A DNA stretch of 45,333 bases, taken from the NCBI GenBank assembly GCA_007117755.1, contig SKFY01000014.1:1-45333 (forward strand), read 5' to 3'. Each line of letters starts with the position of its first letter. Positions within the stretch are counted from its first letter, which is position 1. Below the pieces are notes generated by a model. It was given only the letters and a program-made list of their open reading frames with translations, was not told the origin of the DNA and did not search any database. Origin of the DNA: Candidatus Woesearchaeota archaeon (GTDB lineage: Archaea; Nanobdellota; Nanobdellia; Woesearchaeales; 21-14-0-10-32-9). Both the position numbers and the translations under genes were made by a program. Below, piece by piece: positions 8,827 through 38,384 of this stretch.

Positions 8827-8923
8827 AAAACAATATACTGTACAAGAAAGTATATAAAAGTATTTAATCCGAAAAAGGAATTATTTTAAGAAAGTTTATA
8901 AAGTAAATTTGTTAGTATTAAGT

Positions 8924-12406: not shown

Positions 12407-12826
12407 ATGAATCCATTAGAAGAAACAACAATAAAATTAGTAGCAGAAGGCGAAGTAGAAAACGGAAGAATAGTTCTAAATCCCAACGGAAAAAAAACAA
12501 TAATAAGATTAAACGGAGCATCAAACATAAAGAGAAAAATAGATCCTTATTTAAGAGAAAACATAATCAACTATTTAGAAACAAACTGGTTAAAATACGT
12601 AATAGAACAAGAAAGCATAAACATAAATAAGATATACAGAGGAAAAGATACCGTAATAAGAAACGCAACAGAAAGAGAACTAATATGGTTCTCAAAAAAC
12701 GAAGAAGCAATAAAAAAACCAGATTTTTTAGATTCTAGAGACTCACAAAGAATACTAAGAACAAACTACGTAAAAAATAACGAAACAACAAGAAATAGCA
12801 TAGAAGAATACCTACATAGATTCTAA
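12407..12826 (+). CDS. hypothetical protein
   Basis: 139-aa ORF. Its 3' end overlaps the convergent htpX 3' end by 15 nt. Confidence 0.4.
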   Translation: MNPLEETTIKLVAEGEVENGRIVLNPNGKKTIIRLNGASNIKRKIDPYLRENIINYLETNWLKYVIEQESININKIYRGKDTVIRNATERELIWFSKNEEAIKKPDFLDSRDSQRILRTNYVKNNETTRNSIEEYLHRF

Positions 12827-13702
12827 TCTTCTAATCCTCTCCTCAGTAGGAGGATGAGTACTGAACAATTTCTCCAACCACTTCTTTTTCCTTTTAGGCC
12901 TAGATATAAATAAATGACTATTACCCGCATCAGCAACTTCTAAAGGATTCGTATCCCCACTTAGCTTCCTAAGAGCATTAGCCAAGCCACCAGGATTCCT
13001 AGTGAGAACCGCCGCTGTGGCATCAGCAGCATACTCTCTTTTCCTACTTAAAGTCATCTTAATAGCTTCACCAATAAAAGGAGTTAAAATAGCTAAAACT
13101 ATACCACCTATTAAAAAAAACAAAGTAGCCCTACCATCCCTACCACCACGAGGATTAAATATAGCAATCCTTATTAACATATGACTAAGACTGGCCAAGA
13201 TACCCACTAATATAGCAGCTAAAAGCATAGTCCTAATATCATAATTCTTTATATGAGCAATCTCATGAGCAACCACCCCTTCTAATTCTTCACGATTTAA
13301 CTTATCTAATAAGCCCGTAGTTACCACGACCACCCCTTCTTCAGGACCCTTACCAGTAGCAAAAGCATTCATAGATTTACTTTCAATAACATAACCTTCA
13401 GGAGTCGGAATACCCGCAGCCAAGGACAACCCCTCCAAAGAATGAAACAAATGAGGATATTCTCTTTTAGTGACTTTTTTAGCACCAGTCAACCTCAAAA
13501 GCATATTCCTACCACTACTATACGCGATTAAAGCATAAATGAAACCTATAAAGAAAGTGAATATCATACCAAACGCTAAACTACCCATGTATAATCCTAA
13601 AAAGGCTCCCAACAACAAAACTAATGAAAAAAATATGAGAAATAAAAAAAAAGTTCTTATGTTGTTCTTCCGCACCTCGTCAAAATGAACTAGTTTAGAC
13701 AT
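12812..13702 (-). CDS. htpX: HtpX-type M48 membrane zinc protease
   Basis: N-terminal TM helices, HEIAHIKNYD (HExxH), a later REYAADA motif and further TM segments. Confidence 0.85.
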   Translation of the reverse strand: MSKLVHFDEVRKNNIRTFFLFLIFFSLVLLLGAFLGLYMGSLAFGMIFTFFIGFIYALIAYSSGRNMLLRLTGAKKVTKREYPHLFHSLEGLSLAAGIPTPEGYVIESKSMNAFATGKGPEEGVVVVTTGLLDKLNREELEGVVAHEIAHIKNYDIRTMLLAAILVGILASLSHMLIRIAIFNPRGGRDGRATLFFLIGGIVLAILTPFIGEAIKMTLSRKREYAADATAAVLTRNPGGLANALRKLSGDTNPLEVADAGNSHLFISRPKRKKKWLEKLFSTHPPTEERIRRLESM

Positions 13703-13714
13703 TTTACACCAGCA

Positions 13715-14260
13715 CTAAAATTTGACTTTAACGTTCTTCTTTTCAGATTCAGCCACTTCAAACATTTGCTTTTTCCCAAAATTAAATAATGAAGCAAATA
13801 AGTTCGCAGGGAAACTCTGAATCTTCGTATTAAAACGCATAACCATATCATTATAATGCTGTCTGGAGTAAGCAAGTTTGTTTTCAGTACCGCTTAACTC
13901 TTCCTGTAACTGCAAAAAATTCTGATTAGCTTTTAAATCAGGATAATTTTCAGCAACAGCAAATAAACTTTTCAAAGTATTAGTTAATTCACCACTAGCC
14001 TCTGCCTTTTTAGCAGGAGATTTAGCATTCATAACACTAGTCCTTGCTTTAGTAACTTCTGCTAAAGTTTCTCTTTCATGCTTAACATAACCTTTAACAG
14101 TTTCAATAAGATTAGGAATTAAATCATTCCTTCTCTTTAGTTGTACATCAATCTGTGCCCAAGCATTCTCAACTTGATTTTTTAAACGTATAAAGCTATT
14201 GTATAACCAAATAATAAAGATTACAACAAAAGCAATTATACCCCATAATAACCAATCCAT
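13715..14260 (-). CDS. lemA: LemA family protein
   Basis: N-terminal TM helix plus [34 protein letters not shown], the classical LemA signature. Confidence 0.85.
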
Positions 14261-24975: not shown

Positions 24976-25088
24976 TTTAGCTTTAATCCCCCTCGGTCTA
25001 TAAAAGGATTAATAACATTATTTATAAAATTATTGGTAAGAAAGTACGAAAAAAAAATTCGTTAAACCAATCATGATTTTTTTAATAA

Positions 25089-26717
25089 TTAATTAAATAT
25101 AAATGCGAAGTTAATTCTGAAACTTTTAGCTCTTTCCCAAAAATCTACTTTGTTTTTGTAAATATCTTTATTATCTATTACGTGATTATTAGATGCGCAG
25201 AATAAATAATGATTTTTCGTAGGTTGACAAGCTGATTTATTTATTTGAGCTTCACGCATATAAACAGTGTTGTTTTTAACCAGTAATTCTTCTACTCTGC
25301 TTTCTGCTATGTGAAAAGGAAAATTAGTTATTCCCGTTATAGTATTTAGTTTTATACTCGTATTCGTATCAATACTCACTCCTTTAAAAGAAATCATTGA
25401 ATTGTTAAACTCTAAGGTATCCATATAACCAGGAAGTGTTATGTTACAGCTACAATTACCAATACTCGTACTACAGTCTTTTATTTGACGAGCAACATCA
25501 CCTAATAAATATTCTATTCTATAACTAGCATTTGTGTACTCTCCTGCTTTAAATTGATTAAAACGATTAGGTACAATATCTAAGGTTTGTGTTCCTGTTT
25601 GAACACCTCCTTCAATAACTTCTTCAACGTCTGAAACGTTCAGGAATTCTAATGCGACGCCATTATCATATATTAATTCAACATCTCTTTCAAAGTCAAC
25701 TATGAAGACTTCATCATAATAACTATTATTGAAATAAGCTCTTTCTCCACCACTACCTTCAATGAAATCTATTAATTCTCCAGTCACGACTAAGAAATCG
25801 TCATTTGTTGATAAATTCCCGAGATTATAATCGCTTAAAGGACAAGATCTTGAAATACTAACATTCCTATTTCTTTCCAAAACTTCTTGAACACAATTAT
25901 CATAATCATCATTACAACTAGCATGTAAATCATCAACGAAATCAAAAACATCATTATAAAACAATCTCAAACCCCTTATTACATGGGTAAAAGAATAATC
26001 CCCGCGCAACATACCCATAACGGATCCTGACCTTGCGGAAGCACCAACTACATTAGCATTTTCATCTAATAAGTAAATACTAGGGAACATATTGTTAATA
26101 CGATCATCTAAAGCAGATTCATAACTAGTCCTACCCACACCTGTGTATACACCTATTTCGCAACTACCTCTATAATTAGCACCTGAATCTTCTGCTTTAT
26201 ATATTCCGTTCCAATCATTTCCATCGCCCCAATAAATATACACATAACTATTGATGGGTATGTGACAATTAGAATTAGGATCGTCATTAACAGATATGGT
26301 GAATTTAGCAGCGGGATCTGTACGTGTACTAGTAACTCCTTTGTCGAAATCGGCTTCTACTGAGCTTTCTTGTTCAACATCACTTATTGAACGCAAAGAA
26401 TAAACACCTCTGTTTGAAAATCCTCCTATTTCTTGACACATAACGTCTTCAAAAAAACCTCTTTCTTCAAAAGGAATGAAACACCAACCCCTGACACTAG
26501 CATCGAATTCTTCTCCTTTACCAGTACTCCAGTCATCATAATCCTGTCTGTCAGGAGTGTAATAAATAACGCTTTTAATATTAGTAAAGCTAGGTAAAAC
26601 TTCATCATTTTCAATAGTAGATTCTATTTCTCTTATTTGTTCACTACTAATATCAGCCGCGACTAAGGGTAATAATAAAAGTAAAGCCACTAATATTATC
26701 ATACTTGTTTTTTTCAA
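25089..26717 (-). CDS. secreted MltA/3D-domain-like (double-psi beta-barrel) putative murein lytic transglycosylase with an unknown ~300-aa C-terminal region
   Basis: Sec-type signal MKKTSMIILVALLLLLPLVAAD. IYYTP...GFFEDVMCQEIGG resembles MltA (YYEP...FF.QIQGSG). SVNDDPNSNCHIPINSYVYI...YKAEDSGANYRGSCEIGVYTG resembles the 3D domain (VAVDP..IP.G..V.I...A.DTGGAI.G..IDI). The TTG start overlaps the amidase stop (TTGA), with GGAGG 7 nt upstream. Confidence 0.5.
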   Translation of the reverse strand: MKKTSMIILVALLLLLPLVAADISSEQIREIESTIENDEVLPSFTNIKSVIYYTPDRQDYDDWSTGKGEEFDASVRGWCFIPFEERGFFEDVMCQEIGGFSNRGVYSLRSISDVEQESSVEADFDKGVTSTRTDPAAKFTISVNDDPNSNCHIPINSYVYIYWGDGNDWNGIYKAEDSGANYRGSCEIGVYTGVGRTSYESALDDRINNMFPSIYLLDENANVVGASARSGSVMGMLRGDYSFTHVIRGLRLFYNDVFDFVDDLHASCNDDYDNCVQEVLERNRNVSISRSCPLSDYNLGNLSTNDDFLVVTGELIDFIEGSGGERAYFNNSYYDEVFIVDFERDVELIYDNGVALEFLNVSDVEEVIEGGVQTGTQTLDIVPNRFNQFKAGEYTNASYRIEYLLGDVARQIKDCSTSIGNCSCNITLPGYMDTLEFNNSMISFKGVSIDTNTSIKLNTITGITNFPFHIAESRVEELLVKNNTVYMREAQINKSACQPTKNHYLFCASNNHVIDNKDIYKNKVDFWERAKSFRINFAFIFN

Positions 26718-27877
26718 CTTAACTCCTCCATTAATCTGAAAACTTCCGAGTAATTAAAAGCTGGGCCCGGATCAGATTTTTGTCTGTTAATTTCATCATG
26801 ACCAATTATGTGATTCCTATCAACTCTTATATTAGGATGTCTTTCAATAATATCATTAATTAGCTCCGCAGTAGATCTTATTTGTTCGGGAGTGTAAGCT
26901 TCCCAGCATCTACGTTCTCCACTAAGTTGATGAGGTACGTTAGGATTGCCCAAGTAACAACTAGTTACGGGACACGTAGAGTGGGAATAACCACAGCCTA
27001 CTAAACTAATACCTATAGATCGGGAGTTATAACCCGCATCACAAACTTCTTCTGCATAACCTAAACAACCAGCATGATTCGCAACTTTATTTTCATCTAC
27101 AAATTGAAATACTTGACCGTCTTTGTCAATTACGTAATGATAACTGAAACGTCCTTTACCGCCGTTCCACAGAACATTAAAAGTTGAGTCTGCAGAGGTA
27201 GTTACTGTGTAATGCATAACTATGGTATCTACTTGGCCATGTCTAGTTGAGTATGTTAATCCGTCTCTTTGCATGTATCCCCTGCTATTTTCGTAATAAT
27301 CTGTACTTATTGGTTTTTTAAAAGTTATTCTATAATCTCTTAAATCTCTGTAAATAATTGTTTCTAATTGTGATAAGCTATCAATCCTTACTAAATAATC
27401 ATTATTTTTTCCTTCTATGTTTATTTCGTATCCTGGTTGTCTTAAATTACTGGGATGATTAGCAATTGTGGTATAAAAATAAGGTTCTAAATAGTTTGTG
27501 AAACTCTCTTCAATATCCGGTTTGCATTCATTGGTTATAATTGGGTAAATGAATTCTCCACATTCAAATTCTTCTATTTCATGTTCATATGCTTCAACGT
27601 GGTATCCTGAAAAATCATTCAGCACATTTATTGTTTGAGCACTAGCTATTTTCATTGATGAATCTAAATAATTAAATTTTTCTTGTTGCGCGTCATAGGC
27701 GTGCATAACGGATAATTGATTATAACCTATGAATTCTGTTTCTTCTAACGCGGTTAGTAGTAAAAAGAGTGCTCCTACGAAGAATAAGACGAAGGCGAGG
27801 ACTAAGAATAGTAAAGTAACTACGCCTTTTTTGTTATTTGGTGAGTTCCCCATAATTTTTTTTCCCATAAAAAACAT
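26714..27877 (-). CDS. N-acetylmuramoyl-L-alanine amidase (Amidase_2/PGRP fold) behind a class III signal/TM anchor
   Basis: C-terminal domain DTIVMHYTVT...FSYHYVIDKDGQVFQFVDENKVANHAG...YNSRSIGISLVG...YTPEQIRSTAELINDIIERH...IIGHDEI...KSDPGPAF matches the Amidase_2 consensus (H.T...sYHy.Id.dG.i.q.v....A.HAg..N..SIGIe..G...yT..Q...l..L......I.gH.e....K.DPGp.F). The N-terminus is ...NNKKG|VVTLLFLVLAFVLFFVGALFLLL. Confidence 0.8.
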   Translation of the reverse strand: MFFMGKKIMGNSPNNKKGVVTLLFLVLAFVLFFVGALFLLLTALEETEFIGYNQLSVMHAYDAQQEKFNYLDSSMKIASAQTINVLNDFSGYHVEAYEHEIEEFECGEFIYPIITNECKPDIEESFTNYLEPYFYTTIANHPSNLRQPGYEINIEGKNNDYLVRIDSLSQLETIIYRDLRDYRITFKKPISTDYYENSRGYMQRDGLTYSTRHGQVDTIVMHYTVTTSADSTFNVLWNGGKGRFSYHYVIDKDGQVFQFVDENKVANHAGCLGYAEEVCDAGYNSRSIGISLVGCGYSHSTCPVTSCYLGNPNVPHQLSGERRCWEAYTPEQIRSTAELINDIIERHPNIRVDRNHIIGHDEINRQKSDPGPAFNYSEVFRLMEELS

Positions 27878-27897: not shown

Positions 27898-28440
27898 TTA
27901 ACGACCACCTCTAGAAGGTCTAGGAACGAAGTATTCTGAAATACTCCTAACATCATCACTTGGTTTTATTAGTGTTGCAATAAAATAATAATCTTCACCC
28001 ATCATATTAGGCGTTAATTGAGGTTGACCAAAATCTAAAAACCTATATTGAATAGGAGCTCCCTTGGTGCAATCAAAATCCTCATCTTCAACTTTTTTTA
28101 TCCTAAAAACTAATTCGTTCCTACGAGAAATGCCTACTTCCTCATGTACAAAATCACTTAGTTTTTCTTTGAAACTTTCACATTTGTCTTCGTTCATATA
28201 CTCTACTAATAAATCAGCTACTGTGTTATTATTATTAGTATTATTAACAGGTAATCTGACAAGTGAATTCGTGAATGTTTGAGATTCTAAAAGCTTAGCT
28301 TCAGCTAAAAACCTATTTTTATTTTCTTGAATAGAACTGTTAAGAACAAACATTAACACTATACCTATTAGTATTAACATACCGAGAGCCATGAAAGCCC
28401 CTAAAAACTTCTCCATAATACCTTTTTTTCCTAATATCAT
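27898..28440 (-). CDS. type IV pilin-like (class III signal) protein, function unknown
   Basis: N-terminus MILGKKG|IMEKFLGAFMALGMLILIGIVLMFV; 180 aa. Confidence 0.55.
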   Translation of the reverse strand: MILGKKGIMEKFLGAFMALGMLILIGIVLMFVLNSSIQENKNRFLAEAKLLESQTFTNSLVRLPVNNTNNNNTVADLLVEYMNEDKCESFKEKLSDFVHEEVGISRRNELVFRIKKVEDEDFDCTKGAPIQYRFLDFGQPQLTPNMMGEDYYFIATLIKPSDDVRSISEYFVPRPSRGGR

Positions 28441-28447
28441 TTTATTT

Positions 28448-28906
28448 TCATATGTATAAATACGTAATTTTTAAAACTCCTATGCTACCATTTATAAAAA
28501 CGGGATACTCGAAAAATAATTGGTCACCGGTTAATAAAACCATTACGTTCTCAGTCTCAACATAACCTGTTTGTAAATCACCTGAAGAGTTAAAATAAGA
28601 ATACTCCACTATTAAACCACCTTCGAAACGACTTTTTAAAGGAATACAATCTTTAAAGTCTTCCTCGTTAAACTTGTTTAAATCTATACTGCCAAAACCA
28701 TGATTTTCATCAATCAAACAGTCTCTTAACAAAACAGATTCATAAATCTGATATTGAACAACAGGAAAAACCCCACTAGATAACTCACTAATATTACCCG
28801 CGTAAGCTGTAGAGAAAGAAAAAACAATAAGTAAAAAAGGCAACACAACTAATAAGAAGTAAAATAAGTGGTCAGCTTCAGTCATACTTAAAACGCCTTT
28901 TTTCAA
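28448..28906 (-). CDS. type IV pilin-like (class III signal) protein, function unknown
   Basis: The TTG start overlaps the upstream stop (TTGA), with GGAGG 7 nt upstream. N-terminus (M)KKG|VLSMTEADHLFYFLLVVLPFLLIVF. Confidence 0.55.
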   Translation of the reverse strand: MKKGVLSMTEADHLFYFLLVVLPFLLIVFSFSTAYAGNISELSSGVFPVVQYQIYESVLLRDCLIDENHGFGSIDLNKFNEEDFKDCIPLKSRFEGGLIVEYSYFNSSGDLQTGYVETENVMVLLTGDQLFFEYPVFINGSIGVLKITYLYI

Positions 28907-29688
28907 TTTGTAACCTCCATTATCTCATCAGCTAATGAAAAACTATAACGACTACCACTATATTCGTTAGGTAACCAAATAACTAAGATGTTCTCCATAA
29001 TAACTTCTTCACGATAACTATTAACACCCATTTCCCTCATGTTAGCACCTAAAAAACAACCAAGTTTACGGTACTCGGGGAAACGCTCAGGATACCTGAC
29101 CATAAAAGGACCGTCATGAAGACCGATAAATAAAAGTATGTCTGCTTGATGATCAAAAGTAGGTATTGGATAACCGTTAAAACCGAGATGATGATTGAGA
29201 TTCTCCACGAAATTAAAACTACCAACACCTATAGAATTTACTTTTACAATCCTATTATCTAAAATACCTGGTAAACTATTACAAAAAGATCTTAATTCAC
29301 CAATATCTTTAATCCCGAATTCTAATTCATCACCTTGCCTATAAATAGGTAAAGTAACACCTCTTTGAGATGTGAAACCAATTACTTCAACACCAGTAAA
29401 AGTTCTGAACTCACTCACGTCACTACCTTCCAAACTAGAAACCCTTACGCTATCACTACTTACAACCTCTAACAAATAATTAGGTCCTGCGCTATAAACA
29501 ATTTCTACGTCGCTACGCGAAGCAGTAACGGACTCTATTAATAAAGCTAAATCCCTGCTGAATAATTCTTCTTGACTAGAAACGCCGTAGTTTAGAAGAT
29601 TCATCATGCCAAATAATATCAGAGCGCCTATAGCTACGTTAAAGCCAGTAAAGAAAACCATTTGAACAGAATTTCCTTTTTTATTCAT
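28903..29688 (-). CDS. type IV pilin-like (class III signal) protein, function unknown
   Basis: I prefer ATG 29688 (GGAGG 6 nt upstream, TAATG overlap with the upstream stop) to the track's TTG at 29715. N-terminus MNKKG|NSVQMVFFTGFNVAIGALILFGMM. Confidence 0.55.
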   Translation of the reverse strand: MNKKGNSVQMVFFTGFNVAIGALILFGMMNLLNYGVSSQEELFSRDLALLIESVTASRSDVEIVYSAGPNYLLEVVSSDSVRVSSLEGSDVSEFRTFTGVEVIGFTSQRGVTLPIYRQGDELEFGIKDIGELRSFCNSLPGILDNRIVKVNSIGVGSFNFVENLNHHLGFNGYPIPTFDHQADILLFIGLHDGPFMVRYPERFPEYRKLGCFLGANMREMGVNSYREEVIMENILVIWLPNEYSGSRYSFSLADEIMEVTN

Positions 29689-30386
29689 TAAGAACCTCCT
29701 GGTGTTGGAGAACAATTATTATCGGAAGAAAAGCAAAAACTAATAACACCACCTTCTTTTTTAGTTAAATAAAAATAAGAGTCACGCACGAGATCATGAC
29801 GGATGCCGAAACTGTTAGTCCATTTAGCAGTATCTGCATCTGGATCGACAACATCCGGATTGACAACATCCTGATCGTCAGGATAAGCATCTTCAAACAT
29901 TATTTCTTCTTCAATAACATAGTTTTCAAAGGACAAACAAGAATACTCGCTGCAAGAATACTCTATAGTAATCATCTCACCATGTCTTTCATTAAATCTT
30001 TGCACTCCTTGATTACATAAACAAATACACAGATTATTAGAGTCGCAAGAACTAGGTTTAAAATTGCTTGTTACATCAGAAAAAAGATGACGATTGCGCG
30101 AAATAGCCAAAGGACCAGGCTTATAATCATATTCACTATCAGGGTTTAAAAAAACTATTTTTGAATCAGGCTTTAAACTAAATCTGAAAGACTCCGTGGA
30201 GCCTTCATCCATGCTAATTAAAGTTTCTTCTAAATAATTCGTGAAAATTTCTAATTCTGTAGTATCCTCTCCGAAGAAATAACTTCCTAAACGAACAGTG
30301 AAAGTACAGGAAGCAATAAATAAAGACATAAATAAAACTAGGCTTAATATCCTAAAATACATAGTGCTAGTCTGTCCTTTTCTCAA
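29688..30386 (-). CDS. type IV pilin-like (class III signal) Cys-rich protein, function unknown
   Basis: TTG start with AGAGGT 8 nt upstream. N-terminus (M)RKG|QTSTMYFRILSLVLFMSLFIAS. It contains a Cys cluster SSCDSNNLCICLCNQG...YSCSEYSC. Confidence 0.55.
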   Translation of the reverse strand: MRKGQTSTMYFRILSLVLFMSLFIASCTFTVRLGSYFFGEDTTELEIFTNYLEETLISMDEGSTESFRFSLKPDSKIVFLNPDSEYDYKPGPLAISRNRHLFSDVTSNFKPSSCDSNNLCICLCNQGVQRFNERHGEMITIEYSCSEYSCLSFENYVIEEEIMFEDAYPDDQDVVNPDVVDPDADTAKWTNSFGIRHDLVRDSYFYLTKKEGGVISFCFSSDNNCSPTPGGS

Positions 30387-30620: not shown

Positions 30621-32012
30621 TTAATTAAGCTCATCAAATGAAATATAGCCATAATTATCAGCATAACTTGCTACATTGGAGTTAGGAGGCCCTATGAAGA
30701 TTACTTCACCATTACCTCTAAATGCATCCTCAAGAATCCTGGAAACATCACCTCTAAATATAACTTCATTTAAGTTATTATCATCAAAAGCTTTTTCTCC
30801 TATAAGTTCTAAACTTTCAGGGAATTCAACCCTTGTTAAATTATTTGATCTGAAAGCAAAATCCCTTATTTCTTCAATATTATTCCCGAATTTGACTTCA
30901 GACAATTCATTCATACTAAAAGCATGAATACCTATAGACTTAATACTGTCTCCAAATTCAACTTTTGATAACTTATTTTCACTGAAAGCACCACTTGGAA
31001 TAGTATCAATTGTATCAGGAAACTCTACAGACTCTAAGTTTTTACGTTTAAAAGCGTCCTGAGCAAGTGCAACAACCGTTCTACCATCTATTTCCCGAGG
31101 AATTACTAAACGGGTTTGTGGAGGTGCATAATCGCTGAAACCCCAAACCGCGATAGAATTATCCCCCCGTGCAGAATACATAAAAATGTTATAACCTGCT
31201 AAATTTCTAGAATTATCATCACAAAACGCATCGTGTTCTATCATCCTTTTTTTTAAAGTGACAACATCATCAAAATCAGTATCTAAGCAACCTGGTCTTA
31301 TAATATCCCTAATAATAGGCATTGTTCTAGCAGGATCCCTACAAGCTGTAACGTGAGCATTCACCACTCTTCTCCCAGTTACGGGAATGAAACAAATATT
31401 ATCCTGGTTTTTTAATATGTATAAAAAATAATTGTGTGAATATCTATAATTTATTTTTTTTTTTTTTTCTAAAAGTAAGCTTTCCCATTCTTCAAAAGAT
31501 AAACTTTCAACACGTGAAAAATCTATATTAGATGGATAAAGACCTCTATTATAATCCCTAATTTCATCATATAAAGATTTGGCTTCTTGTTCTCCATAAA
31601 CTACGCAAGGTTTTAAATCGTTAAATTCATGACGTTGTATTACATTCTCCCCACTATAAAGTTCTAAACGAGTTACTGAATTTTCCTCTTTTAAACTTAT
31701 AGAGAAATCATTGTCAAAAAAACTCTTGTGAAAAATATCAATTACTCCAAAACAAAAATTTTCATCAGACTCCACCACGTTTGTTAATTGATTGCGAAAA
31801 CCCGAGAATACATCCATAGCATCACGCTGATCCATAACTATAACTTCTCTACCCCCTCCGGATCTACTACGCTCAGAAAAATCTAAAAAATCAATTGCCC
31901 TATCAAAAGTAGGTAATAAGCCAGACTGTATACTGTTAAAGATGAATATTAAGAATAAGACTACTATAACTGCGGATACAAGCGTTACAGCACTCAAACC
32001 TTTTTTATTCAT
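30621..32012 (-). CDS. class III signal protein with C-terminal BspA-type leucine-rich repeats
   Basis: N-terminus MNKKG|LSAVTLVSAVIVVLFLIFIF. The C-terminal ~140 aa hold ~23-aa repeats (FPDTIDTIPSGAFSENKLSKVEF / GDSIKSIGIHAFSMNELSEVKF / GNNIEEIRDFAFRSNNLTRVEF / PESLELIGEKAFDDNNLNEVIF). Confidence 0.7.
   Translation of the reverse strand: MNKKGLSAVTLVSAVIVVLFLIFIFNSIQSGLLPTFDRAIDFLDFSERSRSGGGREVIVMDQRDAMDVFSGFRNQLTNVVESDENFCFGVIDIFHKSFFDNDFSISLKEENSVTRLELYSGENVIQRHEFNDLKPCVVYGEQEAKSLYDEIRDYNRGLYPSNIDFSRVESLSFEEWESLLLEKKKKINYRYSHNYFLYILKNQDNICFIPVTGRRVVNAHVTACRDPARTMPIIRDIIRPGCLDTDFDDVVTLKKRMIEHDAFCDDNSRNLAGYNIFMYSARGDNSIAVWGFSDYAPPQTRLVIPREIDGRTVVALAQDAFKRKNLESVEFPDTIDTIPSGAFSENKLSKVEFGDSIKSIGIHAFSMNELSEVKFGNNIEEIRDFAFRSNNLTRVEFPESLELIGEKAFDDNNLNEVIFRGDVSRILEDAFRGNGEVIFIGPPNSNVASYADNYGYISFDELN
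30692..31115 (-). repeat. protein-level LRR (BspA/LRR_5-type) repeat block inside the CDS
   Basis: About 5-6 units with the ..I..IG..AF....L..V.F periodicity. Confidence 0.65.
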
Positions 32013-32146
32013 CCGAACGTTACCTCTATCAAATTAAAAAATTCTCCACTTAATGTGTATATGAAATATATTATTACGGCAAGGGTAATAGCTATAGCAA
32101 CCCATTTTCCTAATTCACTAAATAATATATTGGCTTTTTTATTCAA
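32009..32146 (-). CDS. mini pilin-like ORF (45 aa, TTG start; not in ORF track)
   Basis: (M)NKKANILFSELGKWVAIAITLAVIIYFIYTLSGEFFNLIEVTFG. Its TTG overlaps the upstream stop (TTGAATAA) and its TGA overlaps the downstream ATG (ATGA). Length is 138 nt in frame. Confidence 0.45.
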   Translation of the reverse strand: MNKKANILFSELGKWVAIAITLAVIIYFIYTLSGEFFNLIEVTFG

Positions 32147-33473
32147 TTAAATCACACTCATCAAATATTTCACTAGCAGGAGCTATGATCAAAGCATTAT
32201 TACCTATTATGTCCGGACTGAATAATCTGTGATCACTGTCAAAAATTCTTTTGTACCACGCAGGTACGTCACTAGTGCTTACGAAAGCGACGTAGTAAGG
32301 AACAGATATGTTAATATCTTTTACGATAGGAGGGAATCTCATACCATCAGATATTTCAAACATGTAAGAATCACCAGGTATTACGTCAGAGCTTAAATCA
32401 GTTATTTTTAAAGTATCGTGAAGCTCTATTAAAGTATTTATTATAGCCTGGCCTAATTCTTGTACCGAAGAAACTTCAGAGCCTACTCCTTGATAGAAAT
32501 GTTTACTTAGTAAAGGTCTTATTTGTTCTCTTAATATTCTTGATTCATGATCACTGCCTATTAATAAACGCACTTCCTCATTTTGAATACCAAGCATTAA
32601 CATTACTCCTTGACGGGTAGATGCGTTATCTAATGCTATGTTATCAGCTATTTGTCTAGTTCGAGATAATGCTAAGCTATTGAATTCTTCAGCTACTACA
32701 ACAAATAAATCCCCTATGTTATCTTCTCTAAAATCCTGACCTAAACTTTGTATTTCGTTTAAAACATCATGGCTTAGTCTTCCAGAATAATCACTTACGT
32801 AAATGAAGTCGCTTTCATCAATTAATCGAGATCTTATACTTCTATGCATCAGGATTTCATGATCAGAAGGAGGACTTAAACGAGTTTGGAATTCGAAAGA
32901 AGCACTTATATACTCATAACTAGCTCCTCCTCTTAGTACTGGAGGATTATAAACTGTGTTCACCCAATAATTTACTACTTCTTCTGCAGAGATTGTTTTT
33001 TCATTACTATTACCCATATCAGGACGATAATCAATAGGGTAATCACTTATGTTACCTTCGAATTCATCCCCTATAAATCTGAATCTTGAACATACACCAC
33101 AAGCTTTTCCACTCTCCAGTCTTTGCTGTCCAAAAACGTCAAGTACTTGTCCGTCAGCGAATTTATACCAACACTCAGCAGCCAATTCACTTATAGTATT
33201 TAGAGCATCGTCCCTAGTGGATACTTCTACGTCTTTAGCTTCGCCAGTTTTACAAAATAAAGGAGGGAGTATGTCGTCTCCGAATATACCTATGTCTATA
33301 AAGTATCTGTCTCTTGCTAATACCGATTTTCTACACAATTCTATGTCTGCTGAGTCCGTAGCGGCTCTTATTATAGTTGCGTAGGCTATGCTGAGTATTC
33401 CACTAACTAATATTATTAATATTAAAACAACAAGTGTTTTCCTGGTTAATCCTTTTCTATACGCCAATACCAA
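32139..33473 (-). CDS. class III signal protein with a TPM-like domain
   Basis: N-terminus ...YRKG|LTRKTLVVLILIILVSGIL (TTG start at 33473 or 33467). The segment VSDYSGRLSHDVLNEIQSL...LFVVVAEEF...IADNIALDNASTRQGVMLMLGIQNEEVRLLIGSDHESRIL follows the TPM-domain pattern (V.D.A.lLs....l...l...i.vvtv....A..lf..w.iG....nGVLLLva..dR.vRIevGyGLE). Confidence 0.5.
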   Translation of the reverse strand: MVLAYRKGLTRKTLVVLILIILVSGILSIAYATIIRAATDSADIELCRKSVLARDRYFIDIGIFGDDILPPLFCKTGEAKDVEVSTRDDALNTISELAAECWYKFADGQVLDVFGQQRLESGKACGVCSRFRFIGDEFEGNISDYPIDYRPDMGNSNEKTISAEEVVNYWVNTVYNPPVLRGGASYEYISASFEFQTRLSPPSDHEILMHRSIRSRLIDESDFIYVSDYSGRLSHDVLNEIQSLGQDFREDNIGDLFVVVAEEFNSLALSRTRQIADNIALDNASTRQGVMLMLGIQNEEVRLLIGSDHESRILREQIRPLLSKHFYQGVGSEVSSVQELGQAIINTLIELHDTLKITDLSSDVIPGDSYMFEISDGMRFPPIVKDINISVPYYVAFVSTSDVPAWYKRIFDSDHRLFSPDIIGNNALIIAPASEIFDECDLIE

Positions 33474-33573
33474 TCACCCTGGCAGCTATTATTAGTATAG
33501 CTCCACATACTAAAATAGTTAATATAATTATCATTAATTGTTCTAAACTCATTAATCCTTTTTTTTTAACCAT
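33457..33573 (-). CDS. mini pilin-like ORF (38 aa; not in ORF track)
   Basis: MVKKKGLMSLEQLMIIILTILVCGAILIIAARVIGIGV is a class III-type N-terminus and helix only. Its 3' end overlaps the start of the next gene. Confidence 0.45.
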   Translation of the reverse strand: MVKKKGLMSLEQLMIIILTILVCGAILIIAARVIGIGV

Positions 33574-33623
33574 AACTTTCTCATTATGAATAGTCATAGA
33601 AGTGGTATTTAAAAGTTTCTTAA

Positions 33624-35396
33624 TCAGATAATATCAATGTATAATCTGTAATTATCTTGCACACTACTTCCTAGTTGGTTATATAGGCCAACGTTTAACG
33701 TGAATGTTTGTCCGGGTTCGGCACCTGGTATGCTTAAAGGGTTTAAATCTTTACAATCTTTATAAGATATGGTAGTGTCTACCCCGGGTCCTGTTAATGA
33801 TCCTGAACACTTAGCCGTATAATAATCATTTTCAATCCCGAAACTTATGTCTACATGATTATCAAAAGGCGGGTTTAAAGAGGCAGTGACTGTTTTTGTT
33901 CTTTGATTATTCATCTCGTAATCAACACTATTAACTCTAAATGTTAAATAAGGAGGATCTGTTATTACGTTAAAATACCTTCTTTGTTCGTCTACTATTG
34001 TCGCGTCTTCTCGTAATATCGTGATTAATTGATATCTTCCTATATCATCAGATCTTAAAGTTATGAAGTCGCTTAATGATAATTCGCTAGAACAACTACT
34101 TGTATCTCCCCAGACTTCTTGACCTTCTTGGTTTTGTATAGAGTAAGAACAAGTAAGTTCTTCATGGCTTCCAGTATATTTGACAGCGAGTGTTAAAACT
34201 ACTTCTTCGTCTGAAGAAACAGGTATTTCCGCAGGGAATGATTGGAAGTCTAGTAAGTCTTCATAATCGTCTATGCCGAATAAAGTGTATAATCGTGGAG
34301 ATTCAAAACTAGAATCTCTTGTTTGTAAAACCACTCTATACGTTGCTAGTTGAGAAGTGGTTTCTTCTCCGAATAATCTGAAAATTAGTTCATACTCAGC
34401 GTCTCTGATAAAGTTTTCAACATCATAATTTATTCTTATAGGTAATAACATTAAGTTTGAACAGCCTGAAATATCACTTCCTAAAAGATTTTGTGGAGAG
34501 CCAGCTTCGTTTAGTTTCCAGAAGTGGTAACCGCATTGTTTTACATTACTACCTTTGATATTGCTAACTTCTAAAAACACACTACTTAAAAACTCGCTAT
34601 CTTGTTTTAACTTTACTAAATCCACAGGTATTGTATTAACAGCTTCTTTTGAAAGGTGTATTGTTCTTCCATAAAGTTTAAAATCTGCACTAGCAGGAGT
34701 TACTATTTGAGGAGGCGGAGGAGGAGTTACAGGTTCAATAGTTGTCTCATCTGTTACTTCAGGAGGTTCTTCATCCGGAGGTATTACTGTGAAAGGTATT
34801 ATTACACTAGTCAGTATTTCTTCTTCTACACTAACTATTACTGTGAGTGTGTAAGAACCTACTTCTTCTTGAGAAAGACGGAATGTGTTATTGAAAATTT
34901 CTTCATTTTCATCTGTTTTAATGCTCGCTGTATAGTTCCAAGACATGTTGTTAGAAGCTATTCTACCATTGGAATCAGTCATTCTAATACTAAGATTGAA
35001 TTCTCGTATGTTATCAACCCATAATTCATAAGTGTAATTATTAGGAACTTGCAGTGTTTGTCTTTGATTATGCCTTACGACTTCATTATCTTCTTTTCTA
35101 ATTTGTATAATAGGAGGATCTTGAGTATCTACAGGCCTTCCTCCTGGTCTGAAATTAGTAGCGTTTACACAACATACTTGATTGGGGACGATGCTACCGT
35201 CTGATAATTTACATTGAGAAGAAGCTCTTATTTCTTGAGGTCCGCAAGAGTCCCTGCATTCTCCTGGGCAAATGCTTATTTGGTCTCCGAAGGGATCCCA
35301 GGCTTGGTATATACCGTATAAGATAGTTGTGAAAATAACTATGCCTATAAGCCAGTATATTACTTCTCTAATACCCATGGCTTTTTTGTTTAGCAT
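33624..35396 (-). CDS. large pilin-like (class III signal) protein: six-Cys knob, beta-rich repeats and a Pro-rich linker
   Basis: N-terminus MLNKKA|MGIREVIYWLIGIVIFTTILYG. Then ICPGECRDSCGPQEIRASSQCKLSDGSIVPNQVCCVN and the Pro-rich PPDEEPPEVTDETTIEPVTPPPPPQIVTP. Length is 590 aa. Confidence 0.6.
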   Translation of the reverse strand: MLNKKAMGIREVIYWLIGIVIFTTILYGIYQAWDPFGDQISICPGECRDSCGPQEIRASSQCKLSDGSIVPNQVCCVNATNFRPGGRPVDTQDPPIIQIRKEDNEVVRHNQRQTLQVPNNYTYELWVDNIREFNLSIRMTDSNGRIASNNMSWNYTASIKTDENEEIFNNTFRLSQEEVGSYTLTVIVSVEEEILTSVIIPFTVIPPDEEPPEVTDETTIEPVTPPPPPQIVTPASADFKLYGRTIHLSKEAVNTIPVDLVKLKQDSEFLSSVFLEVSNIKGSNVKQCGYHFWKLNEAGSPQNLLGSDISGCSNLMLLPIRINYDVENFIRDAEYELIFRLFGEETTSQLATYRVVLQTRDSSFESPRLYTLFGIDDYEDLLDFQSFPAEIPVSSDEEVVLTLAVKYTGSHEELTCSYSIQNQEGQEVWGDTSSCSSELSLSDFITLRSDDIGRYQLITILREDATIVDEQRRYFNVITDPPYLTFRVNSVDYEMNNQRTKTVTASLNPPFDNHVDISFGIENDYYTAKCSGSLTGPGVDTTISYKDCKDLNPLSIPGAEPGQTFTLNVGLYNQLGSSVQDNYRLYIDII

Positions 35397-35403
35397 GGGA
35401 TTA

Positions 35404-35643
35404 TCAACCCCCTACATGACAACAATAAGGACGATTAGGTTGACAACTATTATCACCATCAGGTAAATGAGCAGGTCCGCAGAATTCGGCTTGACACCTA
35501 CCTCCTAATCTGCTACAAGAAGCCGCGTCGTCCCAGCCATCCGCTGTGGTAAAGAATATATAAATCAGAGTTACCATAACTAACAGAGCTATTATTACAA
35601 CAACGACTGTAGTTATGGTTAATTCTGCTTTTTTATTTATCAT
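35404..35643 (-). CDS. small type IV pilin-like protein with a six-cysteine knob (candidate major subunit)
   Basis: 79 aa. MINKKA|ELTITTVVVVIIALLVMVTLIYIFF, then SCSRLGGRCQAEFCGPAHLPDGDNSCQPNRPYCCHVGG. Confidence 0.6.
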   Translation of the reverse strand: MINKKAELTITTVVVVIIALLVMVTLIYIFFTTADGWDDAASCSRLGGRCQAEFCGPAHLPDGDNSCQPNRPYCCHVGG

Positions 35644-35668
35644 ACTTTTGACAACTCACTTCTTTTTA

Positions 35669-35935
35669 TTATTGTGGTACACAACAAACTTCTCCATCAG
35701 GACATGAATAGCTAGGAGCTCTAACGTACGTAACATCTGGATTAGCTAGTGTTAATTCTTCACAACCTAGTTCTACTGGTTGACACTGAGCATCTCTTTC
35801 TAGAGAAACACATCTAGTTCCTTCGAAGACACTAGAACCTGCATTGAATACTAAAACTGCTAATATAACAAGTACTATCATAGCTAACGCCGCTGCTACG
35901 ACAACATTAAGACTTAATTCTGCTTTTTTAAACAT
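35669..35935 (-). CDS. small type IV pilin-like protein with a six-cysteine knob (candidate major subunit)
   Basis: 88 aa. MFKKA|ELSLNVVVAAALAMIVLVILAVLVF, then RCVSLERDAQCQPVELGCEELT...YSCPDGEVCCVPQ. GAGGTG lies 7 nt upstream of the ATG. Confidence 0.6.
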   Translation of the reverse strand: MFKKAELSLNVVVAAALAMIVLVILAVLVFNAGSSVFEGTRCVSLERDAQCQPVELGCEELTLANPDVTYVRAPSYSCPDGEVCCVPQ

Positions 35936-36011
35936 TATGACACCTCTTAGTTTACAAGGACTATTCTCATTTATAAATTTTTCTAAAAACCACGCCTAAA
36001 AAAAGTTTTTT

Positions 36012-36527
36012 TTATGTGCAGATTCTTATTTTAAAAAATACTACGACGTTGGTAAAACCTTCCCTTACGTTTTTAGGCGTGAATAATTCAAAACCTTGCC
36101 TGTTTTCAGCACATTCATTGGCTAAATAAGTTATTGTTCCAGAAGGACTTGTACGACTCACATTTATAAAGTATCTTAAGCCATACTCGTCAAAAGTATC
36201 ACCTACCATTTCTTTAAGAGTATCGTTAAAAAAAACACAAGCATCATAATAATCCCCGCATTCAAAAGTAGGCAGATCAAGTATACATTGTTCTAATACT
36301 TCACCCATATTTTTTTGTTTATCATTAGCGTCTTTACAAACAGTTTCGCTGTTAAAAAAAGCCGTTGCGAAATTCTCAATTAATTGACGTTCAGCAAAGG
36401 AATCATCGGGAGCCACCGATGAATCAGAAGAGTCTAATAAGAATACTAGTACGAAAAATAAAACTAGTGTTATTAATATAACTATTATTAACAAACCTAC
36501 TATTTCCATCTGGCTTTTTTTTCTCAT
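36012..36527 (-). CDS. type IV pilin-like (class III signal) protein, minor-pilin candidate
   Basis: MRKKS|QMEIVGLLIIVILITLVLFFVLVFLL. Its ATG overlaps the upstream stop (ATGA). Confidence 0.55.
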   Translation of the reverse strand: MRKKSQMEIVGLLIIVILITLVLFFVLVFLLDSSDSSVAPDDSFAERQLIENFATAFFNSETVCKDANDKQKNMGEVLEQCILDLPTFECGDYYDACVFFNDTLKEMVGDTFDEYGLRYFINVSRTSPSGTITYLANECAENRQGFELFTPKNVREGFTNVVVFFKIRICT

Positions 36528-37003
36528 TGAACACTAACCTCTAATATTGCAAAATAAGTTTTTTTATCTACGGGATGATAAACATTAATTGGATAAAAAG
36601 TTCTTTCTATACGCCTATTTTCTTGTAAATTATCAAAGAAGTTTATTGATTCATTGATTTGAAGAGTGGTGTTTAAATCATCATATATTATCAATGTTAA
36701 GTTAACATTGCCCATTCTTCTTATGTAATAAGGGTCGTCTTGTAAATTCTTAAAAGCTTTAACTTTAAAATAATCAAAGCATTTGTAACCTATAGTAGCT
36801 ACTTCACTTGTACAAGTGAATTCTTCCATGTTAGATATTCTTAAACTGGTGCTTAAAATGTCTAGATCAGACTCGTCTTCTAGTAAAGATTGTGTCTGGG
36901 TAGTTCTGAAATTGGATAAATAAACTAATCCTATGATTATTAAAATCATTACTATTATAACTACGGTTATTGATTCCCCGCTTTGAATTTGTGCTTTTTT
37001 CAT
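36524..37003 (-). CDS. type IV pilin-like (class III signal) protein, minor-pilin candidate
   Basis: MKKA|QIQSGESITVVIIVMILIIIGLVYL; 159 aa. Confidence 0.55.
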   Translation of the reverse strand: MKKAQIQSGESITVVIIVMILIIIGLVYLSNFRTTQTQSLLEDESDLDILSTSLRISNMEEFTCTSEVATIGYKCFDYFKVKAFKNLQDDPYYIRRMGNVNLTLIIYDDLNTTLQINESINFFDNLQENRRIERTFYPINVYHPVDKKTYFAILEVSVQ

Positions 37004-37027
37004 TATTAACTAATCCTTATTTGTTTT

Positions 37028-37876
37028 TTAATATATTCTTGGAAGATTACGGTTTCTTAAAAGATCATTAACCGAAGCCAATTCATTCCTATTAGCAGGA
37101 CTCGGTATTTCTTCTTCTTCAAATATAGGTAGTACTTGGTGATAAAAAGTTATGCTTACCGATTCGTTTAATTCGTAAGTCCTATTGTAATAAACTTTAT
37201 TTATAGCCCTAGTTCTTTCCTGTATTTTATCCATTGTGCAATTAAATAAATCTTCATCACCAGTTATTATAAAACCCATTTTTAAAACATCAATATCAAT
37301 ACCTTCATATTCAACTCCATTAACAACCAAATCATCACCTGTTACGTCTATGTTTATAACATCTCTAAAACCAGGAGGAACATAATTTAACGACTTGGAT
37401 ATTTCACCCGGGAACAAATCAAAATAATACTTTGCATCATTTGAAAAGTTATAATGCGTCATGTTATCAACTAAAAAAGTCACTCTCCCCACAGGATAAG
37501 GCACATTTAAAACAGTAGACCAACTTATTAATCTAGACTCCCCCACCCTAGGAGGAGAAAACAATAAGTCTTGTTCTAAATGAACACTACCCACACTATT
37601 TTCTAAAGAAAACCTATGACCATCAATACCACAAGAAAATATGAGTAAACGATTAAAAGGAGTCGTGGATATCCTAACACTATCCACACTAGACTCGTAA
37701 GAACTCAGAACAATACTCATTCTTTCCATCACAGTCCTTCCTAATTGATCAGAAGTAGCATCAGTTTCGAAACTAATGACGTTATAAAACAATACTAATA
37801 TCGCAGCTCCAGCTACTAATACGAACACCCAATTAAAAGATATTTCTATTTGAGCTTTATTAAACATGAAAACCAT
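37028..37876 (-). CDS. type IV pilin-like (class III signal) protein, minor-pilin candidate
   Basis: MVFMFNKA|QIEISFNWVFVLVAGAAILVLFY. AGGTGAAGG lies upstream of ATG 37876. An alternative ATG is at 37867. Confidence 0.55.
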   Translation of the reverse strand: MVFMFNKAQIEISFNWVFVLVAGAAILVLFYNVISFETDATSDQLGRTVMERMSIVLSSYESSVDSVRISTTPFNRLLIFSCGIDGHRFSLENSVGSVHLEQDLLFSPPRVGESRLISWSTVLNVPYPVGRVTFLVDNMTHYNFSNDAKYYFDLFPGEISKSLNYVPPGFRDVINIDVTGDDLVVNGVEYEGIDIDVLKMGFIITGDEDLFNCTMDKIQERTRAINKVYYNRTYELNESVSITFYHQVLPIFEEEEIPSPANRNELASVNDLLRNRNLPRIY

Positions 37877-37912
37877 TATAAAACCTTCACCTTAAAAAAT
37901 TTTTTTTATTAA

Positions 37913-38383
37913 TTATTCATCAACACTAATCACGACTTCTCCACGATGACCAAGCATGACAAAAGATATGCTACCCACAGAGGATTCTGCACAAGTAATA
38001 TTTTGCCCAGCATATAAATTATCAAATCGTAACGCGTCAATTAAAATGTTATCATCAAATAAGAATATGTTATTATGATCATCAAGACTTAACTCAGTCC
38101 CTATTATATCAGTCGCAGCAAGATCATGCGCCCCGCCTTCATCGTTATTTGCGAAACAAACACTACTTATATAATTAGATCTGTACTCAACATCCCTAAC
38201 ACTACCATGACTAGTAGTCCTAGACAAATCCCTTAATAAGTCAGATTTTAAACGAACCAGTTCGACTTCTTCACCCCTATCTAAAATATTAATAATACTC
38301 CTATAACCAACTAATAATAAAGCACCAACTACTAATATAACCATTAAATAAATAAAAACTTGTTGAACTTGTGATTTTCTCAT
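37913..38383 (-). CDS. type IV pilin-like (class III signal) protein, minor-pilin candidate
   Basis: MRKS|QVQQVFIYLMVILVVGALLLVGY. It starts 1 nt after the stop of the giant gene. Confidence 0.55.
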   Translation of the reverse strand: MRKSQVQQVFIYLMVILVVGALLLVGYRSIINILDRGEEVELVRLKSDLLRDLSRTTSHGSVRDVEYRSNYISSVCFANNDEGGAHDLAATDIIGTELSLDDHNNIFLFDDNILIDALRFDNLYAGQNITCAESSVGSISFVMLGHRGEVVISVDE

Positions 38384-38384
38384 T

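Follow-up and report, generated by a model that had tools for sequence, protein, structure and literature searches.

Does a protein that has kept the fold of a wall-cutting enzyme, with the residues of its active site exchanged, still cut, or has it been turned to another use? The question is raised by a gene on contig SKFY01000014.1 of a Candidatus Woesearchaeota archaeon (assembly GCA_007117755.1). We analyzed positions 1 to 45,333 of this contig, and "the window" below means this whole stretch of 45,333 nucleotides (nt). Exactly one open reading frame (ORF) in the ORF listing of the window spans positions 25089..26717, on the minus strand; it starts with TTG, encodes 542 amino acids (aa) plus a stop codon, and is the terminal gene of an operon, next to a gene for an amidase of the peptidoglycan-specific type. 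We call its product the 3D protein, after the 3D (Asp-Asp-Asp) domain recognized in its relatives. A first-pass annotation, made from the letters alone, had read it as a second wall-lytic candidate, a glycan-strand cleaver produced together with the amidase. What we find is a protein that belongs to the MltA/3D kind by homology and predicted fold, that is tightly coupled to the amidase gene, and in which the residues that do the cutting in MltA have been replaced. We lean toward the view that the barrel of this particular copy no longer cuts and that it would instead bind glycan strands, as a subunit that brings the amidase into position.

A stripped-down MltA/3D-type barrel

What kind of domain forms the N-terminal part of this protein? 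Direct searches with the 542-aa sequence say little. A Pfam scan returned no 3D or MltA match even at E<=1, a reovirus capsid match in the same scan (E=0.07) was dismissed as spurious, an NCBIfam scan returned no match, and phmmer against PDB sequences found nothing relevant. A word-indexed homolog search recovered only the protein itself, whether the query was the single sequence or a profile of 37 sequences. All of the homologs discussed here come from a HMMER search run exhaustively against 1.84 billion cluster representatives, which yielded 102 relatives at E<=1e-3 (25 of them at E<=1e-30, with E values down to 3e-66) that have in common a core corresponding to query residues ~40 to 300. 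Relatives from GTDB genomes derive almost all from metagenome-assembled genomes (MAGs) titled Candidatus Woesearchaeota or Nanoarchaeota, with four records labeled "uncultured Methanosarcinales," and some Woesearchaeota members are named "3D (Asp-Asp-Asp) domain-containing protein" by NCBI/JGI.

It is through these relatives that the identity of the domain becomes apparent. Pfam 3D (PF06725) matches 65 of the 72 relatives scanned, at best with E=3e-15. The domains fused to the barrel in the same 72 proteins are Amidase_2 (9 proteins), Peptidase_M15_4 (2), SLT (2), M23 (1), and CHAP (1), and every one of them is a peptidoglycan hydrolase domain. The consensus of the family is ...TxYYTP...RGFYExVKCQGSG...RTIAVN...IPYGSxVYI...NxWNGxYxAEDTGSAFxGxCKIDIYxGVG. 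When 37 members are combined into a profile, MltA of Escherichia coli (2ae0) is matched at E=0.006, and MltA-family proteins make up 7 of the 10 PDB matches listed for this profile. In the alignment with MltA, "AEDtGsafrgecKIDiYaGvG" lies against "ALDVGGAIKGQ-HFDIYQGIG" and "tTvYYtp" against "FTGYYTP," and the columns of T50, D177, and D189 are paired in 2ae0 with T99, D297, and D308.

Structure prediction points the same way. An AlphaFold2 model built from the family alignment has predicted local distance difference test (pLDDT) scores of >90 over residues ~40 to 225, and the top five PDB structures found with it by Foldseek are all MltA structures (7esj, 2gae, 6qk4, 2g5d, and 2g6g; probability 0.89 to 1.0, E 8e-3 to 0.4), as the first-pass annotation would have led one to expect. 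The Foldseek TM-scores are low, since the 542-aa query takes in a poorly modeled C-terminal half. Generic double-psi beta-barrel (DPBB) proteins, namely, aspartate decarboxylase, barwin, the p97 N-domain, and GH45, rank below MltA, with barwin and GH45 structures appearing only at E>1. An affinity to the RlpA/DPBB families, also entertained at the outset, was not borne out: Pfam scans of the query and the 72 relatives gave no RlpA, DPBB_1 (PF03330), or expansin-like profile match.

At the family level, the similarity to 3D/MltA proteins is far beyond chance. Based on the profile alignment and the model, residues 42 to 220 (26058..26594, minus strand) are best regarded as a genuine though divergent MltA/3D-type barrel, the fold of the GH102 lytic transglycosylases. 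The domain is a pared-down version of that fold. The MltA insert domain B (PF03562) has no match in the query or in the 72 scanned relatives, only ~42 residues separate the QGSG loop from the 3D strand (TIAVN) in the query, and a lipobox Cys is absent from the signal peptide. Because the PF03562 insert is absent, we take the domain to be YuiC-like rather than a full MltA. Thus, the MltA/3D identity proposed at first holds for homology and fold and fails for a complete MltA, and the profile evidence for it reaches the query by way of its relatives and the family profile rather than by a direct match.

An exchanged active site

Has this barrel kept what it would need to cut? Residue columns were read from a jackhmmer alignment of all 102 relatives and numbered after MltA via the PDB alignment. 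In MltA, D308 is the catalytic carboxylate, T99 orients this Asp, D297 binds the -2 sugar's N-acetyl group, and G163-S164 form part of the substrate-loop region, S164 contacting the sugar (PMC4499186). In Bdellovibrio Bd3285, mutation of the equivalent Asp to Ala abolishes function (PMC10127604).

Most of these positions have changed in the query. The column of MltA Thr99, which is Thr in 90% of the family, holds Val50 (codon 26568..26570, minus strand). Glu96 and Ile97 (26427..26432, minus strand) replace the Gly-Ser of the QGSG loop, the counterpart of MltA G163-S164, and the query reads QEIG; all 100 other domains aligned at column 96 have Gly, which makes Glu96 unique, and Ile97 stands where Ser is the majority residue. 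In the stretch Glu187-Ile188-Gly189 (26151..26159, minus strand), Gly189 occupies the catalytic-Asp column (MltA D308), where 91% of the 102 other domains have Asp, and Glu187 occupies a column of K or H (MltA H306). Asp177, the equivalent of MltA D297, is kept (26187..26189, minus strand). The Thr, Gly, Ser, and Asp are kept by each of the 14 orthologs found in GTDB genomes, the syntenic ones included, and all 14 read K/H/Q/E/A-[ILM]-D at columns 187 to 189.

The first-pass annotation had noticed a change here, stating that the third Asp of the 3D signature appears as Glu. That assignment is two residues off: the Glu is residue 187, and the catalytic-Asp column holds Gly189. A register shift that would bring Glu187 into this column was considered and rejected, as the alignment is anchored at Asp177, Cys186, and Gly193 and contains no gap between them. 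The first Asp of the signature (MltA D261) is Asn144 in the query, and Asn is found there in 72 of 104 family domains (~70%), which makes it a trait of the subfamily judging from the alignment.

Are these substitutions simply part of a general erosion of the gene? The query keeps 24 of the 29 columns that are conserved at >=80% in the 102 other domains. The three radical changes among the 29 are exactly T50V, G96E, and D189G, and the other two, Y89F and A142S, are conservative. Because only 2 deviations lie outside the catalytic set, a number typical of the family (median of 2 in total), the gene does not appear to be decaying in general. The protein has 12 Cys, all retained at family-conserved positions (C79/C94, C151/C186, C268/C275/C292, C415/C422/C424, and C497/C507).

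Across the family, 82 domains keep both Thr50 and Asp189, 6 lose both, and 4 are mixed. The joint loss affects ~10% of family domains, including decayed duplicates such as the second domain of relative P0070 (15 deviations), and it is the pattern that would be expected if catalysis were abandoned. In a neighbor-joining tree, the query groups with the intact relatives P0003, P0002, and P0004, apart from the degenerate pair P0027/P0040, and the separation from this pair indicates that the catalytic loss in the query was independent. A single ancestral loss common to the query and P0027 was rejected, as the two lie in different subclades of the tree.

The amidase and the conserved operon

The partner gene (26714..27877, minus strand) encodes a membrane-anchored or pilin-like N terminus, a domain of ~190 aa with no known family, and an Amidase_2 domain of the AmpD/AmpDh2 type (PF01510, E=9e-30 over aa 214 to 372). 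The gene matches AmpD in NCBIfam and aligns to AmpD and to Pseudomonas AmpDh2 (4bj4, E=4e-12), with the Zn-ligand motifs HYT (H221), GHd (H359), and DPGP (D368) kept. Based on these motifs, the amidase in the window looks intact.

Four genes lie upstream in the operon (27898..30386, minus strand), encoding small proteins of 180, 152, 270, and 232 aa. Their N termini, like that of the amidase, have a short basic stretch ending in KKG or RKG, followed by a hydrophobic segment, as in MRKG followed by QTSTMYFRILSLVLF and NNKKG followed by VVTLLFLVLAF; the arrangement is kept in orthologs (loci L003 to L012). These look like candidate archaeal class III (prepilin-type) signal peptides, in which case the amidase would be a pilin-like fusion. 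Pfam gave no pilin match for the amidase or the four upstream proteins, and neither a prepilin peptidase nor a pilus ATPase turned up in the window. The 3D protein itself, unlike these five, has an ordinary Sec signal, and its orthologs have equivalent N termini in which the KKG motif is absent.

How firmly are the amidase and the 3D protein tied together? In a tblastn of the window proteins against 14 genome loci, the gene order g232-g270-g152-amidase-3D-RPA, in some cases continued by an ABC transporter, recurs in at least 9 Woesearchaeota MAGs. The junction of the two genes is an ATGA overlap in L006, L007, and L010 and a gap of 1 to 9 nt in L003, L005, and L008; in L009 (2976-7274) and L012 (4771-7566), the two form a single fused ORF. 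Amidase and 3D domains are found in one protein in 9 of the 72 scanned relatives. These fused proteins are ~930 to 1430 aa long and also include P0010, P0013, P0016, P0023, P0028, P0033, and P0038; the fused ORF runs from a pilin-like N terminus through the domain of no known family and Amidase_2 to the 3D domain and the Cys-rich C-terminal region. Together, fusions and synteny constitute strong comparative evidence that the amidase and the 3D protein function together, and the tight coupling claimed in the first-pass annotation is seen again in the conserved synteny, the recurring start/stop overlaps, and the two fused loci.

The lineage of P0027 shows how far the module can change. At L017:4932-7782 (jgi:3300009702 Ga0114931_10001367), the operon and its synteny are kept, and the gene standing in place of the amidase is devoid of an Amidase_2 domain, its match being limited to the N-terminal ~115 aa. 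In the 3D domain of this lineage, too, the catalytic Asp, the orienting Thr, and Gly179 are missing. Thus, both lytic chemistries appear to have been lost there while the module persists.

In the window, the coupling is visible at the level of single nucleotides. The TTG of the 3D gene (26717-26715) and the TGA of the amidase gene (26716-26714) overlap as TTGA (26714..26717, minus strand), and a GGAGG Shine-Dalgarno-like motif (26725..26729, minus strand) lies within the end of the amidase gene, 7 nt 5' of the TTG. Both features had been pointed out at first pass, and both are there in the sequence. Public gene calls of the identical protein (P0001), made in two assemblies, start instead at an ATG at 26702, five codons downstream, and give 537 aa. 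We consider the TTG the better supported start for three reasons: orthologs begin with M-K/N-K and a hydrophobic stretch, three orthologous loci show an ATGA overlap with the amidase gene, and the arrangement GGAGG-7 nt-TTG also precedes an internal gene of the operon (28448-28906), with exactly the same spacing.

The N terminus that follows from this start, MKKTSMIILVALLLLLPLVAADI, has a positive n-region and then a hydrophobic core (Kyte-Doolittle 2.6), the sole transmembrane-like segment of the protein. Residues 1 to 21, MKKTSMIILVALLLLLPLVAA, form a Sec-type signal peptide of typical make-up (26655..26717, minus strand), recognized by its hydrophobicity and with cleavage predicted after A21. 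Along with this signal, the peptides quoted in the first-pass annotation could all be located in the ORF: YYTP at aa 52 to 55, GFFEDVMCQEIGG at aa 87 to 99, VNDDPNSNCHIPINSYVYI at aa 143 to 161, and AEDSGANYRGSCEIGVYTG at aa 175 to 193.

TTG starts are also used by internal genes of the operon (28448-28906, 28903-29715, and 29688-30386, minus strand), with overlaps of at least 4 nt with the preceding gene, and most first-in-operon genes of the window have no Shine-Dalgarno-like motif. Such motifs precede 10 of the 46 ORF starts of the window, versus a background of 7.5%. This distribution suggests leaderless or non-Shine-Dalgarno initiation at operon starts and Shine-Dalgarno-dependent reinitiation inside operons. 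Archaeal terminators are oligo-T tracts, and a run of nine T residues (25049..25057, minus strand), 32 to 40 nt past the stop codon, is a putative terminator of the operon.

Binding, cutting, or neither?

The observations outlined so far are consistent with a model in which the ORF product, from a DPANN archaeon of the Woesearchaeota, is exported through Sec to the cell surface, rich in disulfides, and probably N-glycosylated. It is encoded last in a conserved operon that runs from four small prepilin-like proteins to a pilin-like-anchored N-acetylmuramoyl-L-alanine amidase of the AmpD/AmpDh2 type, and since the TTG overlaps the amidase stop, the amidase and the 3D protein would be made together. 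We posit that the family as a whole is directed at bacterial peptidoglycan, to attack or harvest it, and that a glycan cutter acts there jointly with a stem-peptide amidase. Two arguments lead us to peptidoglycan as the target: the fused partner domains are without exception peptidoglycan hydrolases, and an engagement with bacterial walls has previously been suspected for Woesearchaeota (PMC8204110, PMC9723730, and PMC12352652). In intact members, the transglycosylase would yield anhydro-muropeptides, and the AmpD-like amidase could then strip their stem peptides.

For the present copy, the model takes a different turn. Its catalytic apparatus appears to have been dismantled (Thr50Val, Gly96Glu, Ser97Ile, Lys/His187Glu, and Asp189Gly), while the fold, the cysteines, and Asp177 are kept. 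We therefore favor, with moderate confidence, a subunit that is noncatalytic, or at best weakly or unconventionally catalytic, and that would bind glycan strands and thereby dock and position the intact amidase on the bacterial cell wall. Homology, fold, operon coupling, and the exchanged residues are established by the analysis; that peptidoglycan is the ligand, that activity has been lost, and that the amidase is the partner are points that we infer. A glycan cleaver co-produced with the amidase, as originally proposed, is likely for the family and doubtful for this protein.

Could the barrel still be an active lytic transglycosylase, with a relocated acid, Glu187 or Glu96, doing the work of the missing Asp and with glycan cleavage and stem-peptide removal truly co-produced? 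Several points speak for this alternative or weigh against a purely binding role. The fold and 24 of the 29 conserved positions are intact, including the sugar-binding Asp177 and all of the cysteines. Two new glutamates stand at exactly active-site positions: Glu96, which has no parallel in the family, is part of the substrate loop, and Glu187 shares a beta-strand (187 to 194) and a face with position 189 in the AlphaFold2 model, so that either might serve as a substitute acid. An acidic residue is found at column 187 in 2 of 9 domains lacking Asp189 versus 2 of 92 (Fisher p=0.04), a mild enrichment that could hint at compensation; one of the cases without Asp189 is a duplicate that probably inherited its Glu. 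An AmpD-like amidase would, moreover, logically act on anhydro-muropeptide products. The family may also already differ mechanistically from MltA, with Asn in the majority at the first Asp of the signature; physical contact with the amidase is suggested by gene fusion and synteny only; and no close relatives of the query, which could show whether selection maintains the derived state, emerged from the homolog searches or from a scan of JGI metagenome contigs. Set against an active enzyme are the essential nature of the catalytic Asp in both MltA and Bd3285 and the simultaneous loss of the orienting Thr and the substrate-contacting Ser, which looks like relaxed constraint and not like relocation. 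The recurrence of the joint Thr/Asp loss elsewhere in the family, decayed P0070 domain included, argues in the same direction, and the unambiguous register does not put a Glu at the Asp position. On balance, we see an active enzyme as doubtful, and as the strongest of the rival readings. If it were true, an acid moved to Glu96 or Glu187 would represent a new active-site configuration for DPBB transglycosylases.

Is peptidoglycan the right ligand at all? The 3D protein could be a structural or adhesive part of a pilus-like surface apparatus encoded by the upstream genes, or it could bind another GlcNAc-type glycan (host archaeal surface glycans, chitin, or pseudomurein), with the barrel acting as a lectin or in the manner of an expansin. 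Prepilin-like proteins dominate the conserved operon, the operon persists in the P0027 lineage with the Amidase_2 domain gone and the barrel degenerate, MltA itself binds chitohexaose (PMC4499186), and generic DPBB, barwin, and GH45 folds are among the weaker Foldseek matches. The adjacent amidase in the window, however, is an intact enzyme of a peptidoglycan-specific type, the domains fused to the barrel in relatives are all peptidoglycan hydrolases, and Asp177, the reader of the N-acetyl group, is kept; we judge such a role to be quite unlikely. We regard it as very improbable that the gene is merely decaying with no remaining function. The loss of several active-site residues together and the lack of close relatives that would show the derived state to be maintained fit such an account, but the 542-codon ORF is intact with its signal peptide, Shine-Dalgarno-like motif, and start/stop overlap, all 12 cysteines and all but 5 of the 29 core positions are kept and just 2 deviations lie beyond the catalytic set, conservation extends to the C-terminal motifs, and the identical sequence is present in two assemblies.

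For this copy, a subunit that binds glycan strands and brings the amidase into position thus remains our preferred reading. Can the picture be drawn more broadly? We speculate, as a proposal that is in its entirety rather unlikely, that Woesearchaeota possess a conserved and hitherto undescribed surface apparatus, made up of the prepilin-like operon, an amidase-bearing pilin-like subunit, and a translationally coupled or fused MltA-like module, which latches onto bacterial walls and opens or harvests them, the module in the present copy acting as a lectin or through an acid relocated to Glu96 or Glu187.

The C-terminal half

Beyond the barrel, residues 226 to 542 are conserved in >50 family members and fall into three submodules. 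A helical, Cys-containing linker module (aa 226 to 296; 25830..26042, minus strand) is defined by the alignments, with C268, C275, and C292 conserved and AlphaFold2 helices at pLDDT ~80, and is separable in homologs. It is followed by a variable, beta-rich insert (aa 297 to 395; 25533..25829, minus strand), which is delimited by jackhmmer domain boundaries, is absent in some homologs, and has low pLDDT. The conserved C-terminal module (aa 396 to 542; 25092..25532, minus strand) carries the motifs DCxTSxxxCxC and CxPxKxHxxxC and a terminal beta-strand with the family consensus [RK]F[ST]LKI. In most members of the family, this strand, in the broader form [RK]-[FY]-[ST]-[LV]-K-I, stands at the very end, after CxPxKxHxxxC; the protein in the window ends in ...RINFAFIFN. 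The terminal motif may serve in sorting, anchoring, or strand complementation.

The first-pass annotation had found no recognizable family in the last ~300 aa, and our searches agree. There is no Pfam match for residues 226 to 542 in the query or in the 72 relatives and no convincing PDB match. A separate AlphaFold2 model of this half has a mean pLDDT of 62 and no convincing fold match; its best Foldseek match, to OB-fold-containing proteins, has a probability of 0.54 and lies over the insert, a weak resemblance. Based on the alignments and this model, we regard residues ~226 to 542 as a conserved, lineage-specific, Cys-rich region whose predicted fold is without a known match. Eleven N-x-S/T sequons are present in the protein, all in residues 285 to 493 (10 of them in 301 to 493) and none in the MltA-like barrel. 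Together with the pattern of Cys residues, they suggest an extracellular protein with a glycosylated, disulfide-bonded stalk.

Surroundings of the locus

The window has a G+C content of 26 to 36%. Archaeal markers are an RPA-like OB-fold protein, encoded directly downstream of the 3D gene, and a NAC-domain protein on a matching public contig. No tRNA genes and no second copy of a 3D-like domain, also in a 2299-aa ORF, were found in the window. A scan of the window for sigma-70 promoters and intrinsic terminators gave background levels, with models that are inappropriate for an archaeon.

Probable surface proteins are encoded in a row upstream of the operon (30621-45284, minus strand). They comprise a BspA-type LRR_5 protein (30621-32012, minus strand), a TPM-domain protein (32139-33473, minus strand) whose gene keeps its synteny in L006 and L017, a protein of 590 aa that matches Wzt_C weakly, several ORFs without matches, and the 2299-aa ORF (38385-45284, minus strand), which has no Pfam match. 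Other hydrolase genes of the window encode a Peptidase_S51 protein (7018-7764, E=6e-43), a C39-like cysteine peptidase that stands alone (8909-9394), and, as a pair, LemA and an M48 peptidase (13715-14260 and 12812-13702).

Significance and comparison with known systems

Why should a single divergent barrel matter? DPANN archaea such as the Woesearchaeota are uncultivated and their hosts are not known, and peptidoglycan-directed proteins are among the few clues that bacteria, and not other archaea, are what some of them live on. The locus described here offers a traceable and expressible module of prepilin-like proteins, an amidase, and an MltA-like protein at a fixed site beside an RPA-like single-stranded-DNA-binding gene, with Rosetta-stone fusions that link the amidase to the MltA-like domain. 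The natural series of intact and degenerate versions would allow wall cutting and wall binding to be tested against each other as the selected function. There is also a practical lesson: before "lytic transglycosylase" is assigned from motifs, the catalytic column should be inspected, or this copy would be misannotated as an enzyme.

The closest structural reference is E. coli MltA (membrane-bound lytic murein transglycosylase A, GH102; 2ae0, 2gae, and 2pi8), with its homologs from Acinetobacter (7esj), Burkholderia (LtgG, 6qk4), and Neisseria (2g5d), all of which have the same double-psi beta-barrel fold. MltA and the archaeal family have in common the motifs T-x-YYTP, QGSG, A-[LE]-D-x-G-x-A, and [HK]-[FI]-D-[IV]-Y-x-G-x-G, and the query keeps the equivalent of Asp297 as Asp177. 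It differs from MltA in having no lipobox and no insert domain B, with ~42 residues between the QGSG loop and the 3D strand versus ~93 in MltA; in having Asn for the first Asp; in the changes of Asp308 to Gly, Thr99 to Val, and Gly163-Ser164 to Glu-Ile; and in its extra conserved disulfide cysteines, 320-aa C-terminal extension, and archaeal host. The minimal 3D proteins of the Firmicutes, Sps/YuiC (PF06725; 4wjt), are, like the query, secreted, stripped-down MltA barrels with no domain B, and PF06725, the Pfam model that recognizes the relatives of the query, is of their type. YuiC yields a 1,6-anhydro product (PMC4499186). It keeps three Asp residues (D129, D151, and D162) and Thr91, whereas the query keeps the middle Asp only; the accessory region of the query has no LysM, G5, or SH3b domains, and YuiC is absent from the top 50 Foldseek matches of the query.

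Expansins, such as Bacillus EXLX1, have a DPBB barrel that descends from a glycan-cleaving ancestor, has lost the catalytic carboxylate, and acts by binding. The concept is the one that we favor for the 3D protein, although Pfam revealed no tie to expansins or DPBB_1 by sequence or by profile. Closer in organism and proposed biology, namely, the binding or degrading of bacterial walls, are the large extracellular murein transglycosylases (SLT/GH23) and further peptidoglycan hydrolases that have been reported from Woesearchaeota, Pacearchaeota, and Nanoarchaeota (PMC8204110, PMC9723730, and PMC12352652). Those reports concern GH23/SLT domains or modular hydrolases with known binding domains, unlike the 3D-type query, and our literature searches found no report of a 3D/MltA-type family in Woesearchaeota or other DPANN, of its amidase/prepilin operon, or of its degenerate members.

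The best functional analogy for the archaeal family is probably Bd3285 of Bdellovibrio bacteriovorus (PMC10127604), an MltA-like 3D protein that a small predatory or parasitic cell exports against the wall of another cell. Bd3285 is bacterial, monocistronic, and dependent on its catalytic D321, whereas the query belongs to an amidase-coupled operon and has lost that Asp. Judged against all of these systems, the copy in the window belongs to the family by homology and predicted fold, with a catalytic signature that has been replaced. The enzyme family itself is ordinary; what is useful, and not yet described, is the conserved archaeal module and the natural series of active and inactive versions that comes with it.

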